IMG/VR virus record: IMGVR_UViG_2713896784_000025
Strand: one strand, 5' to 3'
From: a virus
Lineage: Duplodnaviria; Heunggongvirae; Uroviricota; Caudoviricetes
DNA: 12,452 nt
The notes under the pieces are model-generated. The model worked only from the letters and a program-made list of their open reading frames with translations. It searched no databases and had not been told where the DNA came from. Below, one piece after another: positions 666-9,613 of this stretch (its first letter is position 1; each line of letters opens with the position of its first letter). A program made the translations under genes and the position numbers.

Positions 666-834
666 AAGTGCGGGTGCGTTGAGGATGCCTGATTCATCAG
701 AGGTGGCGAGGGATTTCTCCCNNNNNNNNNNNNNNNNNNNNNNNNNNNNNNNNNNNNNNNNNNNNNNNNNNGGCTTTTCTCTATCTGCCGTTGGTGTTCA
801 TGCCCGAGGCAGATAGCCTCAAGCACCCGCAGCT

Positions 835-1263: not shown

Positions 1264-2037
1264 ATGACTAAACATATGGACATTCATTGTCAAACACGCA
1301 TATTTAACTCAATTAACCATGACACCAAATATAAAATATGTATTTTTACTCCAAAAAACATTAAAAAAAATAATGCAACTCTTTATATACTTGATGGGAA
1401 TAGTGCCAACAATTACATTTCTGATATTCTGCCTGTTATTGATGCACTACCCAATCCACCAGTGTTAGTTACACTTGGTTATGAATCTTGGAATAACCTT
1501 AGCATTCATCGCCGTGCTTACGATTATACTCCTGATGGTGAAAATGCTATTGTTGATAACTCTAAACCAGCATGGATCTACTTTACTGGTGGAGGAAGCC
1601 AGTCTTTCCGAGAATTATTACTAACTCAGATCATGCCATGGGTTAGTACTATTGCTCCGAACAGTTCCAGAATCGGTATATGGGGACACTCGCTAGGTGC
1701 TATTTTTGTGCTTGATTGCTTAAAAAATAATTCATGCTTTAACTATTATTATATATCTGCACCATCACTTCTATGGCAGAATGAAAGAATCATCAAGATA
1801 ATTAAAGATGATATATCAGAATCAAAGCACACTAAAAGTATATGCTTGCTTAACGGAAATCTTAGCCTTGATTACTCCGCATCTTTATATCCTGAAGCCA
1901 TCAAAGCGGAATCTGTTTTGAGAAATATTTTGACAGAAAAATACAGTAATTTTTCTATTGTACAATTTCCAGAGCTCAATCATCAGGAGACTTTCTCTGC
2001 TGCACTCTGGAATAGCATTATTCATTTCAGCATATAA
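1264..2037 (+). CDS. Esterase-family alpha/beta hydrolase (siderophore-esterase-like 'putative esterase' fold), 257 aa, on an AT-rich island
   Basis: ATG at 1264 preceded by GGGGAGA; stop at 2037. Motif string YILDGNSA ... GGGSQSFRELL ... IGIWGHSLGAIFVL ... YISAPSLLW matches the esterase-family pattern with a G-H-S-x-G nucleophile elbow. No N-terminal signal peptide. Gene and flanks are far more AT-rich than the rest of the window. Confidence 0.8.
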   Translation: MTKHMDIHCQTRIFNSINHDTKYKICIFTPKNIKKNNATLYILDGNSANNYISDILPVIDALPNPPVLVTLGYESWNNLSIHRRAYDYTPDGENAIVDNSKPAWIYFTGGGSQSFRELLLTQIMPWVSTIAPNSSRIGIWGHSLGAIFVLDCLKNNSCFNYYYISAPSLLWQNERIIKIIKDDISESKHTKSICLLNGNLSLDYSASLYPEAIKAESVLRNILTEKYSNFSIVQFPELNHQETFSAALWNSIIHFSI

Positions 2038-3121: not shown

Positions 3122-3171
3122 NNNNNNNNNNNNNNNNNNNNNNNNNNNNNNNNNNNNNNNNNNNNNNNNNN

Positions 3172-4313: not shown

Positions 4314-5516
4314 TCACCCCCTGAATCCCGGCGGAATTTCGGTATCCGGTTCAGAAATATGATTCACACAACGCTGGTTGTTCGTGCCGCTTACCGGGAG
4401 CAACCAGGGGTTTTCAAAATTCCGGTCCGGCCCAAAAAACGTCGTCGCTCGCTGAACAAATTCCGTTCCCGCTTTCCCGGTCGCCGCCAGGTATCTCGCG
4501 TAACGCCTCACACCATCCAGCATGGTCTCTGGTGGCACCCCCTCGCGCAATCTGGCCTTCCAGGCACTGAAAGCGGATTTCTTCGGGTTTGCCCCAGCAC
4601 GCAACGGGTATTCCCGCCAGACCTGTTCGAACACATCCGGATAATCCACTCGTCCCACAGACTGCCCGGTGCTTTCCGGGACTACCCGATCGGCTTCCCG
4701 CTGAATGGCGGAATCGGCTTCAGGCTGCTGCAGTTGGTGTGATTGCTCCGACCCTGCGGTCATCACCTGCTGCACAGCGCCCGAATCGGCTTCCGGTGTC
4801 GTGCCTGCTGGCTGACCAGGATTGACGGTCTGAACATCCCCTGCCTGGTTCGTGGTGTTTTTTTTGCCATGAACCATAGTGTTTTTGTCCTGTTCCTGTT
4901 CTTTCTCCTGCTCCTGTTCCTGTTCTTGGCTTCGAAGCCCCTTAAAAGCCCCTTCGAAGCCCCTTACCGAATTTCGGCTATTATTCCGCCTCACATCCAG
5001 ATGGAAATCCGTTTTATATCTGTCGTAAAACACTGACAGAAAAGCGTTTTCAGGTAATGATGCATACTCATTCCTGACACCTGCACAACGGTTATCGCCA
5101 GGCTTCAACGTTTCCCCAACCTGCCAGGCTGCCATTTCATGGACCCAGACCATCTCTGCATCATGGTCATAGCTACAAAAACCAGCTTCAACAGCCCTTT
5201 TAAGCCCCTTTGAAGCCCCTTCCAGACCAAGCCCGGTTTCATGAGCAAGGTATAAAACTGGCAGGTAATACAAACCCAGCATATTTGCGTGAGGGGATGT
5301 CATCAGGTAAAAAGCAACAACTTGCGCTTCTGCACCCGCCTTTCTAAGTTCTCTCCCCGTTTCTCCCAGCCAGAATCGCGGAGAAACTTTTGCGTAATCA
5401 CGCATGGCTACCTCATCTGGTGCCGAACCTTCCTCCGGATATAATCTGTGGTTCCCAATCGACAGAACCAGAGGAGGTTCGACATGTATTTTTTGAAAAG
5501 CCTTTATCAGGCTCAT
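4314..5516 (-). CDS. Replication initiator / replisome organiser (lambda O / YdaU position), 400 aa; alternative start at 5408
   Basis: Directly upstream of and nearly abutting the DnaC-like gene. Contains a QEQEQEQEKEQEQ low-complexity linker and a duplicated EGA[F/S]KGL peptide encoded by iteron-like DNA repeats. ATG at 5516 has no clear ribosome-binding site; the ATG at 5408 (MRDYAKV...) follows GAGG. Confidence 0.75.
   Translation of the reverse strand: MSLIKAFQKIHVEPPLVLSIGNHRLYPEEGSAPDEVAMRDYAKVSPRFWLGETGRELRKAGAEAQVVAFYLMTSPHANMLGLYYLPVLYLAHETGLGLEGASKGLKRAVEAGFCSYDHDAEMVWVHEMAAWQVGETLKPGDNRCAGVRNEYASLPENAFLSVFYDRYKTDFHLDVRRNNSRNSVRGFEGAFKGLRSQEQEQEQEKEQEQDKNTMVHGKKNTTNQAGDVQTVNPGQPAGTTPEADSGAVQQVMTAGSEQSHQLQQPEADSAIQREADRVVPESTGQSVGRVDYPDVFEQVWREYPLRAGANPKKSAFSAWKARLREGVPPETMLDGVRRYARYLAATGKAGTEFVQRATTFFGPDRNFENPWLLPVSGTNNQRCVNHISEPDTEIPPGFRG
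4898..4975. repeat. Hexamer tandem repeats (CTGTTC/CTCCTG-type) followed by three direct repeats of GAAGCCCCTT; iteron-like cluster 1
   Basis: 4898-4937 carries about 6-7 hexamer units; (G)AAGCCCCTT copies at 4944-4953, 4956-4964 and 4966-4975. Confidence 0.5.
5193..5222. repeat. Iteron-like cluster 2: two further (G)AAGCCCCTT copies plus a degenerate one
   Basis: AAGCCCCTT at 5203-5211 and GAAGCCCCTT at 5213-5222, about 250 bp from cluster 1 and inside the same gene. Confidence 0.45.
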
Positions 5517-5622
5517 GTATTAAATGTTGCAGCAACAAACCGCTGGTGTAACAGCCCCGAAATGCTCCCGGATTACAGAGCCTGGCTGCGCGCCGAAACA
5601 TACCTTCGTCTCGACATATTGA

Positions 5623-6132
5623 TTAGCGAACTTCAAAAAGAGACTGCATCCATTCATAACCTTCAGGGTATCGACGCTGTTCGCATTCTGGTATCGCGCC
5701 ATAGTGCTCTCTCAATAATTGAAGTGCGTCATCTCTCTTTTTCTGAACTGATTTTCTTGCTTCAACCAGCTCTGGAATCAGCGAATATCCCGCCGGAAGT
5801 GATCCAATACCCACCTCATGTTGACGAGCAGTTACAAGATGTGCCATACAACCAGCGTGCTGGATTGACTCCCTGCTCAGAGGCTGAATGGGATCACTCT
5901 CTGCTGAAGAAATACCAAGATTTGTATAATCCTCAATAAGCCCGGCACACGCTTCTGCATCAGCCAGCTTTATTCTGGTTTCCTTGCGCTGTTCTCTGGC
6001 TGACAAACGCCAGAGCAGCGCATTAGCTTTATGTATCAACCACTCTGCCAGCTCCACATCAGATAAACCGCCACGCCAGATGTGCGGACTGTTTTCGTAA
6101 ACGCTCAGTGTCAATTTTTTGTCATTACTCAT
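5623..6132 (-). CDS. Hypothetical early-right operon protein (about 169 aa)
   Basis: ATG at 6132 (MSNDKKLTLSVYENSPHIWRGG...), 13 nt downstream of the YdaT-like stop. The track's longer version begins at a GTG at 6183. No family recognised. Confidence 0.6.
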   Translation of the reverse strand: MSNDKKLTLSVYENSPHIWRGGLSDVELAEWLIHKANALLWRLSAREQRKETRIKLADAEACAGLIEDYTNLGISSAESDPIQPLSRESIQHAGCMAHLVTARQHEVGIGSLPAGYSLIPELVEARKSVQKKRDDALQLLREHYGAIPECEQRRYPEGYEWMQSLFEVR

Positions 6133-6145
6133 ATTTATTACCCAA

Positions 6146-6571
6146 TTAATGCACAGCCAGAGTGTTTCCTGCCGGGCCACCACGATTCATCTGATCGAAC
6201 AGAACGATCGCTGATGCAACGAAATCATCAATATCTTTCACCAGCCGTTCCTTCGTCTCTACCAACTCCCGAAAATAAGCGGAACTGTGGCTGCGCATTC
6301 GGGCCACCAGCGGAGGCGGCATCGCTTTTTCGATCGCTGGTAACAACGCCTGAATTTTTTTAACCGCATCAGGAGTGTCTTTCTCCACCCAGCGGAAAAT
6401 TTTCTGAGTATTGCGAGCCATGGCTTCCGGATGGCTGTCGTCATACAGTTCCGGGAACGTCATTCCCAGCTCGAAATACGCTTTGGTAATTTTCGCAGCC
6501 GGTACTTTTTCGCCGTCCGGATGCGCCCAGGCATTCATCGCCATGCGGATGTGTTCATGCTTGATTTTCAT
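6146..6571 (-). CDS. YdaT-like protein (Rac prophage ydaT position), 141 aa
   Basis: ATG at 6571 with GGAG 8 nt upstream; its first 17 nt overlap the end of the Cro-like gene. Begins MKIKHEHI..., which matches my recollection of E. coli YdaT in start, length and position, but this is unverified. Confidence 0.65.
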   Translation of the reverse strand: MKIKHEHIRMAMNAWAHPDGEKVPAAKITKAYFELGMTFPELYDDSHPEAMARNTQKIFRWVEKDTPDAVKKIQALLPAIEKAMPPPLVARMRSHSSAYFRELVETKERLVKDIDDFVASAIVLFDQMNRGGPAGNTLAVH

Positions 6572-6827
6572 GAATCAACTCCGGCGCATTTGATGTGTTA
6601 ACCTTACATCCAACAGGTAAACCGTCGGTTGGGTTAGGATAAATATCTGGGCGGATTTCATGCGGGGTAACTTCCCACTTCATTAGTTGGCATAACGGAA
6701 TTACCTGCTTTGGGGGAACGCCAAAGCTAAACCATTGCCAAACAGTCTGTTGAGCGACCCCCATATAACGACCTATTTCAGCCTGAGTGTATTTCTGCCT
6801 AATTTTTTCGCGAGTGCTATCTAGCAT
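6555..6827 (-). CDS. Cro-like / YdaS-type HTH regulator, 90 aa
   Basis: ATG at 6827 with strong AGAGGAGGG upstream. HTH segment QAEIGRYMGVAQQTVWQW; transcribed divergently from the repressor gene. Confidence 0.8.
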   Translation of the reverse strand: MLDSTREKIRQKYTQAEIGRYMGVAQQTVWQWFSFGVPPKQVIPLCQLMKWEVTPHEIRPDIYPNPTDGLPVGCKVNTSNAPELIHENQA

Positions 6828-6860
6828 TTTGCCCTCCTCTAAAAACTATAAGCAAAGCCT

Positions 6861-6899
6861 ACAATAAAAAACTGTATGCAATCAACAGTTTTTTATTGT
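6861..6899. promoter_or_regulatory. Operator: perfect inverted repeat ACAATAAAAAACTGT-(9 nt)-ACAGTTTTTTATTGT in the divergent intergenic region (OR-like)
   Basis: Arms at 6861-6875 and 6885-6899 are exact reverse complements; they sit between the Cro-like start (6827) and the repressor start (6936). Confidence 0.6.
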
Positions 6900-6935
6900 G
6901 ATGCTTTTAACAGTATTTACCTGTAAAATTGAATA

Positions 6936-7337
6936 ATGATGAGCGCCCTAGAAGTATCTATGTACAGAATCAGCAAGCTTCTTCAGGAAACTGGATGGAG
7001 CCAGGCTGAGCTTGCCCGTAGAATTGGTGTGACACAACAAACTGTTCAACAATGGGTCAGCGGTAAGGCTACACCTAAAGCCTCAAGTTTGGATAAACTG
7101 GTTGAGGTTTCAGGGCATCCATTGCATTGGTTTTTATTGCCTCCTGAAGAGTGTGAGCAAATTTTCACCCCTGACACGATGAAAATTGGTCCTCGCCAAC
7201 GCGAACTGCTCCAAGCTTTTAGTGCGTTTCCTGAGGAAGACCAAGAAAAAATGCTTCAAGAAATCAAAGACAAGAAAAAATCAATGGAAGAAACCATTGC
7301 TAGGTGGCTGGCGGCACAAAAAAGCCGCCGGGCGTGA
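6936..7337 (+). CDS. Prophage repressor, short XRE-family HTH protein (DicA/RacR-like; possibly PaaR2-like), 133 aa
   Basis: HTH WSQAELARRIGVTQQTVQQWVSG; C-terminal tail (PRQRELLQAFSAFPEEDQEKMLQEIKDKK...) is laid out like DicA as I recall it; no S24 peptidase domain. No clear ribosome-binding site at 6936, so possibly leaderless; 6960 is an alternative ATG. Confidence 0.85.
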   Translation: MMSALEVSMYRISKLLQETGWSQAELARRIGVTQQTVQQWVSGKATPKASSLDKLVEVSGHPLHWFLLPPEECEQIFTPDTMKIGPRQRELLQAFSAFPEEDQEKMLQEIKDKKKSMEETIARWLAAQKSRRA

Positions 7338-7364
7338 CCACAGTACAAGAAGAGGAGTTATGCC

Positions 7365-7556
7365 ATGGGTACAGCCCTTTCTCCGATAGTTTCAGAATTC
7401 GAAACTACCGAACAAGAAAACAGTTACAACGAATGGTTGCGCACTAAAGTAACGTCAAGCCTTGCAGACACTCGCCCCGCAATTCCACATGACGAGGTAA
7501 TGGCTGAAATGGAAAATCTTATTGCTCAAATTGCTGTAACTAACAAGAGCGAGTAA
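7365..7556 (+). CDS. paaA2: Type II antitoxin partner of ParE (PaaA2-like), 63 aa
   Basis: GGAG ribosome-binding site; stop TAA overlaps the ATG of the downstream toxin (TAATG). Size and sequence (SEFETTEQENSYNEWLRTKVTSSLADTRPAIPHDEV) fit my recollection of PaaA2; symbol is tentative. Confidence 0.7.
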   Translation: MGTALSPIVSEFETTEQENSYNEWLRTKVTSSLADTRPAIPHDEVMAEMENLIAQIAVTNKSE

Positions 7557-7843
7557 TGTTACCCATTTTATGGCTACCGTCTGCTCGCGATGATTTGCGC
7601 CAGATCATAACTTACATCGCCAAGGAGAACCCACCGGCAGCACGTAGACTAAAAATACGCATTGAAACATCGGTATTACCTCTATCTGAGCATCCGTACT
7701 TATATCCACCAAGCGAACGGGTTTCTGGATTGAGAGAGATCGTGACCCACCCTAACTACATAATCCTGTACAGAGTAGCTGCTTCAAGCATTGAGATTGT
7801 AAGCGTGACACATTCTCGGCGACAATTTCCCTTCTCTATCTGA
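7556..7843 (+). CDS. parE: ParE/RelE-superfamily toxin (ParE2-like), 95 aa
   Basis: MLPILWLPSARDDLRQIITYIAKENPPAARRL...LSEHPYLYPPSERVSGLREIVTHPNYIILYRV: the characteristic ParE N-terminal helix and core. Translationally coupled to the antitoxin. Confidence 0.85.
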   Translation: MLPILWLPSARDDLRQIITYIAKENPPAARRLKIRIETSVLPLSEHPYLYPPSERVSGLREIVTHPNYIILYRVAASSIEIVSVTHSRRQFPFSI

Positions 7844-7893
7844 GTTGAACAATTTTCATACTCCCTCTTTCGAGGGATTTTTTTGCCCAAAAC

Positions 7894-7933
7894 AACAATT
7901 AAAAACTGTTGACACAAAAACAGTTTTTTATTG
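7894..7933 (+). promoter_or_regulatory. Second operator copy with embedded TTGACA (OL/pL-like)
   Basis: ACAATTAAAAACTGT (7894-7908, 14/15 identical to the OR left arm) and ACAGTTTTTTATTGT (7919-7933, identical to the OR right arm), 10-nt spacer. TTGACA at 7908-7913; the -10 element is ambiguous (TAGATT at 7933-7938). Confidence 0.5.
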
Positions 7934-8125
7934 TAGATTACATACACCAACCACCCACCCCGCCCCACAGAACGCCGGGCAATACTTCGAGTTACCAAGC
8001 AGTGGTCAGGGGGTAAGTAGCCAGCCCGAGGCGTATGAACATGACGGCAGGGTTCAACTTTAATAACTATGCAGCNNNNNNNNNNNNNNNNNNNNNNNNN
8101 NNNNNNNNNNNNNNNNNNNNNNNNN

Positions 8126-9367: not shown

Positions 9368-9404
9368 CGCTGCAACGCCCTCTGTTATCAATATTCTGGT
9401 GACA

Positions 9405-9451
9405 TTTGGCGGTATCAGTTTTACTCCGTAACTGCTCTGCCGCCCTTTTTT
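9405..9451 (+). terminator. Weak intrinsic-terminator-like element (plus strand)
   Basis: GGCGG ... CTGCCGCC with a long loop, followed by TTTTTT at 9446-9451. Confidence 0.25.
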
Positions 9452-9613
9452 AAAAGTGAATTTTGTGATGCGGTGAATGCGGCTCAGCGCACGCGGAACA
9501 GTTAAATCGGTAAAGCGGTCATTTGCTGAGTAACGAGAATGCTCTGTATCCGGCGTTAATTGTTAACTGGTTAACGTCACCTGGAGGCACCAGGCACCGC
9601 ATCACAAAATTCA
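9452..9613. repeat. Long-range inverted repeat (about 20-bp arms, 19/20 matching) flanking about 120 bp upstream of the 9631 gene
   Basis: GTGAATTTTGTGATGCGGTG (9452-9471) is the reverse complement of CACCGCATCACAAAATTCAT (9594-9613) except for one base; the interior holds two GTTAAC sites. Confidence 0.45.

Follow-up and report, generated by a model that had tools for sequence, protein, structure and literature searches.

A conserved antisense pair of predicted protein-coding genes adjoins the immunity switch of prophage Sp4 of Escherichia coli O157:H7

The stretch of DNA analysed here is a virus record of 12,452 nucleotides (nt), IMGVR_UViG_2713896784_000025 of IMG/VR, which we refer to at its full length as the window and which, by sequence identity, is prophage Sp4 of Escherichia coli O157:H7 Sakai. 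We focus on positions 5623-6827, where the rightward early operon of this cryptic lambdoid prophage begins with the overlapping genes ydaS and ydaT, followed by an open reading frame (ORF) of 169 amino acids (aa), ORF A. We find that ORF A is one half of a conserved antisense pair: a second frame, ORF B, converges on it from the opposite strand, and comparative analysis, on which this statement rests, indicates that both are protein-coding. Long antisense dual coding is rare in bacteria and phages, and the A/B pair is the new part of the finding. The ydaS/ydaT part belongs to an already characterised kind of prophage switch and adds only that the operator logic of prophage CP-933P holds in a sister prophage. 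The explanation that we favour, with a probability of about 0.6, is that a PaaR-type immunity switch is here combined with a mobile convergent module of A and B, both of them coding.

Results

ORF A (5623-6132, minus strand) is oriented like the early operon and begins with an ATG 13 nt past the stop codon of ydaT. ORF B (5484-5939, plus strand) encodes 151 aa and overlaps A, 3' end to 3' end, over 317 nt (5623-5939) in a phase that sets the codon positions opposite one another as A1-B1, A2-B3 and A3-B2. Protein searches recovered full-length relatives of A and of B down to ~50% identity, and we surveyed 23 lineages by reading the DNA of the locus, some of these lineages having been found through predicted-protein databases. 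Both frames are intact in 18 lineages from several enterobacterial genera (the window, L041, L008, L009, L005, L084, L096, L094, L045-L047, L132, L133, L136, L145, L148, L149 and L150), always in the same phase, with overlaps of 257-323 nt and amino acid identities down to ~30-35%. Counting A by itself, 19 of the 23 carry it intact. Ten lineages were found through B alone; of these, six have an intact A, and in a seventh the frame is open but N-terminally truncated.

The module is found in several genomic contexts, including the interval from ydaT to the replication initiator gene, early regions of the Cox/ASH/RecE type and, in one lineage, a position downstream of the repressor. One lineage (L095) has it in the interval from a P22-type cro to a CP76-type cII gene and another (L096) downstream of a P22-type cro. 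Whatever the context, A shares the strand of the neighbouring genes, to which B is antisense; where the module follows the repressor, the same-strand neighbour of A is the repressor gene, not the early operon. In Salmonella-type contexts, A is preceded by strong Shine-Dalgarno (SD) sequences.

By two null models, neither frame would stay open by chance. When the partner protein was recoded with synonymous codons, the probability per lineage of an open frame was 0.005-0.29 for A and 0.005-0.08 for B, and permutation of the partner's actual codons gave 0.001-0.057 for A and 0.0003-0.09 for B. The products over seven lineages that are ~50% or less identical come to ~1e-9 for A and ~1e-11 for B, figures that are approximate because the lineages are related.

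Selection can be read separately in the parts of each gene that lie outside the overlap. The A-only part (5940-6132, the first 64 codons) has Nei-Gojobori ratios of nonsynonymous to synonymous substitution rates (dN/dS) of 0.06-0.28, and the B-only part (the first 46 codons) has ratios of 0.08-0.40. The corresponding ratio of proportions (pN/pS) is the lowest of the six frames in the annotated frame, and exceeds 1.6 in the B frame past B's own stop codon. Summed over four independent pairs, the differences at first, second and third codon positions number 28, 21 and 60 in the A-only part and 30, 23 and 53 in the B-only part, an order of third over first over second in both. Within the overlap, the differences are spread evenly over the position classes, with no wobble class: A1B1, A2B3 and A3B2 have 45, 72 and 71 (four pairs). 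Constraint is strongest at the first positions that the two frames share. The divergence of the overlap, 0.34 per site between the window and L005, is far under the synonymous divergence of 0.7-0.9 in the flanks. This pattern across flanks and overlap is as expected if both frames encode protein.

The preliminary description of this region had presented the 169-aa gene as one without a recognised family. This stands for Pfam and for NCBIfam (including NF033230), in which A has no match; in PHROGs, the protein matches PHROG 8304, a family without known function (E 4e-120, residues 1-169 of 169). The description had not seen that the 3' two-thirds of the gene are held in common with a conserved antisense gene. 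The PHROG 8304-type family comprises 22 clusters at 50% identity in profile searches, and an alignment of 20 of its sequences has the conserved motifs SPHIWxGGL..ELAxWL..KANAIL, YxxLGxS..DPIxPLSxEAIxF and PxGYSxLPDL.

ORF B is a member of the ECs1072 family, matching NF033230 at 105.7 bits (cut-off 70) over positions 3-141 of 142. An AlphaFold2 model built from 8 sequences (predicted local distance difference test, pLDDT, 89.5; predicted template modelling score, pTM, 0.86) is confident and all-alpha, and the predicted fold has no known relative. For both A and B, sequence and profile searches found no relatives in Pfam or the PDB, and PADLOC gave no match at E<=1. Relatives of B were recovered by profile searches from Escherichia, Salmonella, Klebsiella, Yokenella and Enterobacter; B and the A/B module were absent from the isolated phage genomes of INPHARED, and a protein-pattern scan of genome contigs turned up no relatives of the module. 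In three lineages (L086, L088 and L044), B is kept where A has been lost. The first of these, a Salmonella lineage (L086, 4001-4462 and downstream; also L087), carries B without an A partner, followed in tandem by a second leader of the kind described below and an unrelated 151-aa gene.

Annotation of the locus has moved from one strand to the other. RefSeq places at this position a plus-strand gene (5484-5939) for an "ECs1072 family phage-associated protein", called by the Prokaryotic Genome Annotation Pipeline (PGAP), and leaves the minus strand without an annotation. The Sakai record as it now stands (L246, NC_002695.2) has lost the tag ECs_1072, and B (19361-19816, equal to window positions 5484-5939) has been newly tagged ECs_5703 on the other strand; the curators evidently swapped one ORF for the other. 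Of 5426 complete E. coli genomes, 455 carry the A/B module, in single copy, and in these PGAP calls B alone. A 2007 microarray study found that ECs1072 changes in expression at a growth transition in uninduced Sakai, the ORF and strand seen by the probe being ambiguous. Papers on overlapping genes and on transcription start sites (TSS) in enterohaemorrhagic E. coli (EHEC) do not mention the A/B locus.

The most conserved DNA of the module is a leader of ~70 nt in front of B (5418-5486, plus strand). It comprises a 5' block, TGGTGCCGAACC (5418-5429), a -10-like hexamer TATAAT (5440-5445) followed by CAGAACC, a local GAACC/GGTTC hairpin, and the SD sequence GAGGAGG (5471-5477), after which come TTCGAC and the ATG of B (5484). 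RNAalifold predicts a stem of 14 pairs in which the 5' block pairs with the SD sequence and with the AU of the AUG, and one sequence with a GTG start carries the matching compensatory change from U-A to C-G. Among 50 leaders, the positions TA...T of the -10-like element (TAnnnT) are conserved at 76%, 54% and 88%. Rfam holds no family that matches the leader or the locus. We considered and rejected the idea that the leader is coding DNA, since its reading frame varies between lineages.

In 96 IMG/VR prophage loci, genes of at least 12 unrelated small protein families have this leader in front of them (leader-bearing loci comprise L086, L090, L092, L097, L098 and L152-L226), the largest families being B itself (38 loci) and one of 92-99 aa (35 loci). 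It is also found in Xenorhabdus, where it heads a 99-aa gene, in Salmonella, where it heads an 80-aa gene, in Klebsiella and Izhakiella, and, without A or B, in 64 further E. coli genomes. Two of these E. coli genomes, with Rac-like prophages (L097, 2501-3119; L098, 2501-3164), likewise have it in the slot from ydaT to the initiator gene, in front of a plus-strand gene of 83 aa in one case and of 131 aa, with a hydrophobic N-terminus, in the other. This cargo converges on, and abuts without overlap, an unrelated sense-strand gene of 98 aa or 64 aa. As the leader heads genes that are unrelated to one another, we read it as a portable cassette for the expression of variable cargo.

Upstream of A, the coordinates, the gene order and the 17-nt overlap of the Cro-like and YdaT-like genes given in the preliminary description are all confirmed. 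The first gene of the operon, ydaS (6555-6827, minus strand; ECs_1070), follows an SD sequence, GGAGGG, located upstream of its ATG and encodes a 90-aa Cro-like helix-turn-helix (HTH) regulator that matches Pfam YdaS_toxin (PF15943; 38.8 bits, cut-off 30, E 8e-10) and phrog_35 (E 9e-29). The second, ydaT (6146-6571, minus strand; ECs_1071), encodes a 141-aa CII-like regulator that matches PF06254 (38.9 bits, cut-off 21, E 1.2e-9), phrog_163, "CII-like transcriptional activator" (E 4e-46), and the PDB entries 8bt1 and 3c4r (E~1e-83). Over residues 2-141, it is ~89% identical to the crystal structure of CP-933P YdaT (8bt1), which consists of a POU-like domain and a four-helix bundle. The placement of these genes at the head of the early-right operon is borne out by analogy, in that the PR promoter of CP-933P has been mapped by 5' RACE upstream of ydaS (PMC8630535).

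The stretch common to ydaS and ydaT (6555-6571) had been taken as a sign of coupled expression. This is plausible, and overlaps of 4, 17 or 23 nt between the two genes recur in relatives. As a full account of the overlap it is incomplete, since the palindrome OM, TTGATTTTCATGAATCAA (6561-6578), lies over it. OM is the sole exact match in the window to the YdaT operator TTGATTN6AATCAA, a motif that YdaT binds at the end of ydaS according to DNase I footprinting and isothermal titration calorimetry (PMC9986795), and it is centred on the start codon of ydaT (6569-6571). With an exact operator sitting on it, the overlap may double as a regulatory site, and we regard it as a candidate translational-coupling junction and regulatory site in one. 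A two-mismatch version of the palindrome, TTGATTAGCGAACTTCAA (5619-5636), lies over the stop codon of A. We rejected this TTGATT half-site as a second YdaT operator, because 10 of 200 shuffled sequences reach as many matches (four).

In CP-933P, a bistable switch is formed by PaaR2 as the CI analogue, YdaS as that of Cro and YdaT as that of CII (PMC8630535). On this model we identify ydaS and ydaT of the window as the corresponding Cro-like and CII-like genes of an immunity switch of the PaaR type, rather than as a toxin pair. Operator binding and repression of PRM and PR by YdaS are known from the CP-933P homologue, whose operators differ from those of the window, and activation by YdaT of a reverse, PRE-like promoter toward the repressor gene is known from CP-933P and Rac.

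The ydaS operon diverges from the repressor gene across a repeat-rich region of 108 bp (6828-6935), which by the CP-933P analogy would serve as a divergent promoter and operator region, equivalent to OR/PR/PRM. Its repeats, a perfect 15-nt inverted one (6861-6875 and 6885-6899) and direct ones at a spacing of 25-26 bp, are unlike the GTTTAGTAA palindromes and repeats of CP-933P. This difference in operator repeats suggests that immunity specificity is probably different, and Sp4 and CP-933P, both O157 prophages, are probably heteroimmune. The repressor gene (6936-7337, plus strand; ECs_1069) encodes a CI-like protein of 133 aa with a PaaR-type HTH domain (HTH_3, E 2e-12). Downstream lie genes for a PaaA-like antitoxin (7365-7556; PaaA2, E 6e-19) and a ParE-like toxin (7556-7843; ParE_toxin, E 3e-17). 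In an alignment read by eye, the toxin is roughly 70% identical to ParE2 of 5cw7, and so the window appears to carry a paralogous, less-studied three-component toxin-antitoxin (TA) system of the paaR1 type.

On the other side of the module, the replication initiator (4314-5405, minus strand; ECs_1073), an O-like or DnaD-like helicase loader of 363 aa, matches phrog_1701 (E 1e-148). An alternative ATG at 5516 would lengthen its ORF to 400 aa and carry it over the leader and the opening 33 nt of B; the phrog_1701 match begins at residue 38 of the longer frame, and PGAP and the homologues favour the start at 5405.

Positions 5500-7900 of the window are 100% identical to many E. coli O157:H7 chromosomes. 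The Sakai record places the window in an annotated "prophage Sp4, lambda-like phage", and its genes ECs_1069 to ECs_1073 match: ECs_1069 is the repressor, ECs_1070 and ECs_1071 are the overlapping pair, and ECs_1073/1074 are replication proteins. The EDL933 counterpart of this prophage is probably CP-933M. A homologue of paaR2-paaA2-parE2 has been located on CP-933M (PMC8630535), and this is most likely the present window. We considered whether the window could be CP-933P itself and rejected this, the identities of YdaT (~89%) and ParE (roughly 70%) marking it as a paralogue.

Elsewhere in the window, there are three runs of exactly 50 N (722-771, 3122-3171 and 8076-8125), one of them inside a DUF1627 gene that measures 771 nt in an intact RefSeq copy. 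A full-length match to the small RNA DicF (9394-9445; 76.9 bits, E 6e-16) lies upstream of a dicB homologue, and so does a sub-threshold STnc100-like match (9459-9608) that comes after DicF. Next to a hokD homologue is a match to a sok-like antisense RNA (772-826, minus strand; 41.8 bits, under the gathering score), which is cut by an N run. An alpha/beta-hydrolase gene (1264-2037, plus strand) has 34% G+C against a window average of 46% and an orientation opposite to its neighbours, and looks like a separately acquired accessory gene.

Discussion

Our comparative results suggest that the slot between ydaT and the initiator gene contains a mobile module of two genes that converge and have ~317 nt in common on opposite strands. 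A would be an early lytic gene read within the early PR transcript from a start 13 nt after ydaT. B would be an independently transcribed accessory gene of the "moron" type, read from its own conserved leader beside the initiator gene. The promoter would be enclosed by a stem-loop in which the ribosome-binding site and AUG of B pair with the 5' arm, and, as in the fold-back inhibition of IS10, only transcripts from B's own promoter would be translated, those reading through from outside being silenced. Since the transcripts of A and B converge, strong PR transcription after derepression would favour A and suppress B, and PR repression in the lysogen would allow B. Taken to its full extent, this amounts to a deeply conserved module in which the two strands of one ~300-nt stretch are both coding, and in which an early lytic gene A and a lysogen-expressed accessory gene B are made mutually exclusive by convergent transcription. 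B would then sit at a site in Rac-like and lambdoid prophages that has so far gone unrecognised as a hotspot for cargo, its defining feature being a portable leader that prevents read-through RNA from being translated and heads a dozen unrelated families, possibly with roles in defence or exclusion. We put this extended model forward tentatively, as a conjecture that may well fail in one or more of its parts.

Several observations weigh against the favoured explanation and its mechanism. Four lineages (L044, L088, L095 and L086) have a frameshifted or truncated ORF A or none at all, and in one (L007) B has a nonsense codon. The combined probabilities are approximate, the lineages being related and some having come from predicted-protein databases. 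The sources searched, including the supplements of the EHEC TSS studies, hold no transcript, ribosome-profiling or proteomic evidence for A or B. The AlphaFold2 model of A, with long helices and disordered stretches (pLDDT 55), is too poor for a fold search, and A is absent from RefSeq and never annotated by PGAP. A consensus scan of 5200-7000 for promoters and terminators yielded no promoter, so that the putative promoter of B rests on the conserved -10-like TAnnnT. Finally, the leader stem is more stable on the strand of the early transcript and may act there.

The last of these points underlies the alternative that survives best, namely that the leader hairpin belongs to the early, minus-strand transcript as a processing, stabilising or attenuating structure upstream of the ribosome-binding site of the initiator gene. 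In the window, the predicted fold is significant on both strands, with a minimum free energy of -31.8 kcal/mol (z -4.8) on the minus strand and -26.3 kcal/mol (z -3.1) on the plus strand, and the leader always ends at the SD sequence of the next sense-strand gene. That gene, however, varies (the initiator, a 64-aa ORF or a CP76-type cII), whereas the ATG of the antisense cargo is fixed in the stem. Moreover, several G-U pairs of the stem would be A-C mismatches on the other strand, as at the mid-stem columns 16/79, which are U-G in 8 of 15 sequences, and they thereby favour the B-sense strand. We consider a role in the early transcript unlikely, if one to be kept in view.

A different proposal follows from the preliminary description, which had stated that the ydaS-ydaT pair of Rac is toxic when derepressed and that racR is essential for this reason. 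Extended to the third gene, it would make ydaS, ydaT and ORF A a toxic trio restrained by the repressor, which would then be essential. Silencing of racR is indeed lethal and expression of ydaS/ydaT toxic in Rac (PMC5700377, PMC5700373), with filamentation and cell death caused by Rac YdaT (PMC11879457), and in CP-933P YdaS slows growth if its overexpression is prolonged. This framing has nevertheless become outdated. The toxicity of Rac YdaT has been explained as a by-product of its regulatory action, as a transcription factor, on host rcsA (PMC11879457). The ~89%-identical YdaT of CP-933P is non-toxic, its authors call YdaS and YdaT regulators and not a TA pair, and cells with the CP-933P system can stably occupy a state in which ydaST is ON (PMC8630535). 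The addictive element here is the adjacent PaaA/ParE module, and nothing links A, which has no relatives in PADLOC, Pfam or the PDB, to toxicity. A toxic trio thus seems quite improbable to us. What had been described is for the most part a correct account of a known kind of switch under an outdated toxin reading, and its third gene is half of a conserved antisense pair.

It could also be held, in line with RefSeq, that only B is real and that the 169-aa frame is a shadow ORF, open by chance opposite B and downstream of ydaT. PGAP calls B alone in the 455 E. coli genomes, a confident fold is predicted for B and not for A, and B persists in lineages that have lost A. Yet the 64 codons of A outside B evolve under the low dN/dS reported above, A's is the frame with the lowest pN/pS of the six, and the frame of B past its stop codon behaves in the opposite way. 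A is open in six or seven of the ten lineages that were found through B alone, against a chance of 0.001-0.06 per lineage, has strong SD sequences in Salmonella-type contexts, and forms a family of 22 clusters with conserved motifs. Together these make a chance origin of A very unlikely. The converse, that only A is real as part of an operon ydaS-ydaT-A-O and that B is an annotation artefact, draws on the strand and close spacing of A after ydaT, on its standing as a PHROGs family and on the nonsense codon of B in L007, but is highly improbable in view of B's confident model from only 8 sequences, its low dN/dS outside the overlap, its near-invariant SD sequence and leader, its retention where A is absent or broken, and the small probability (0.0003-0.09 per lineage) of an open B frame given the codons of A.

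If A and B both encode proteins, the pair is a useful test case. Long antisense coding overlaps are usually dismissed as annotation errors, and the handful of examples from bacteria are young and contested. In the present pair, the natural knockouts of A and of B provide a clean system for the evolution and expression of overlapping genes. The pair also exposes an annotation problem, in that PHROGs has A and NCBIfam has B and no resource or pipeline keeps both. In addition, the shared leader marks a variable cargo slot beside the immunity switch of common E. coli and Salmonella prophages, which makes the slot a candidate place for lysogenic-conversion or exclusion genes.

The closest known system is paaR2-paaA2-parE2/ydaS-ydaT of CP-933P (Jurenas et al. 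2021, PMC8630535; Prolic-Kalinsek et al. 2023, PMC9986795). Both loci have a PaaR repressor with PaaA/ParE, a divergent ydaS that overlaps ydaT, and replication genes in the same order, together with YdaT proteins ~89% identical and an identical OM palindrome at the ydaS/ydaT junction. The window differs as the paralogue Sp4, in its ParE (roughly 70% identical to ParE2) and in its repeats between repressor and cro, and in CP-933P no more than two genes are described as separating paaR2 from o (PMC8630535). The A/B module being single-copy in O157 genomes, it appears to be an insertion specific to the Sp4-type prophage. The racR-ydaS-ydaT locus of Rac in K-12 has the same Pfam families and layout, and its YdaT is a CII-like activator of a reverse promoter inside ydaS (PMC11879457). 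It is more distant, however, with YdaS and YdaT of CP-933P only 26% and 31% identical to their Rac counterparts (PMC8630535), and the toxicity seen in Rac has not been seen for CP-933P YdaT. Rac-like prophages likewise have a slot between ydaT and the initiator gene with the same leader, and differ in the cargo of the slot.

As for the antisense overlap, the published cases (nog1/citC, asa, pop/ompA and the olo genes of EHEC; olg1/olg2 of Pseudomonas) resemble A/B in that both strands are coding and annotation pipelines discard one. Most of those overlaps are young, taxonomically restricted and embedded in an older "mother" gene, and they are backed by ribosome profiling. In contrast, A and B are predicted genes of similar size with a partial 3'-3' overlap, co-conserved across genera to ~30-35% identity, and each has a selected half outside the overlap.

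The leader finds its nearest parallel in the fold-back inhibition of the insertion sequences IS10 and IS50, in which the 5' segment of an inverted repeat pairs with the SD sequence and start codon and the element's own transcripts remain translatable. The order of parts is alike, a 5' arm and a promoter-like element followed by a 3' arm with SD sequence and AUG; unlike them, the leader serves a phage cargo slot and not a transposase, and its promoter is putative. Lastly, the position of B recalls the oop antisense RNA of phage lambda, a leftward unit between cII and O. B, too, is a leftward unit between a CII analogue and an initiator gene, antisense to the early right operon, but it is a 151-aa protein gene by prediction rather than a 77-nt RNA, and it overlaps A and not the 3' end of ydaT.

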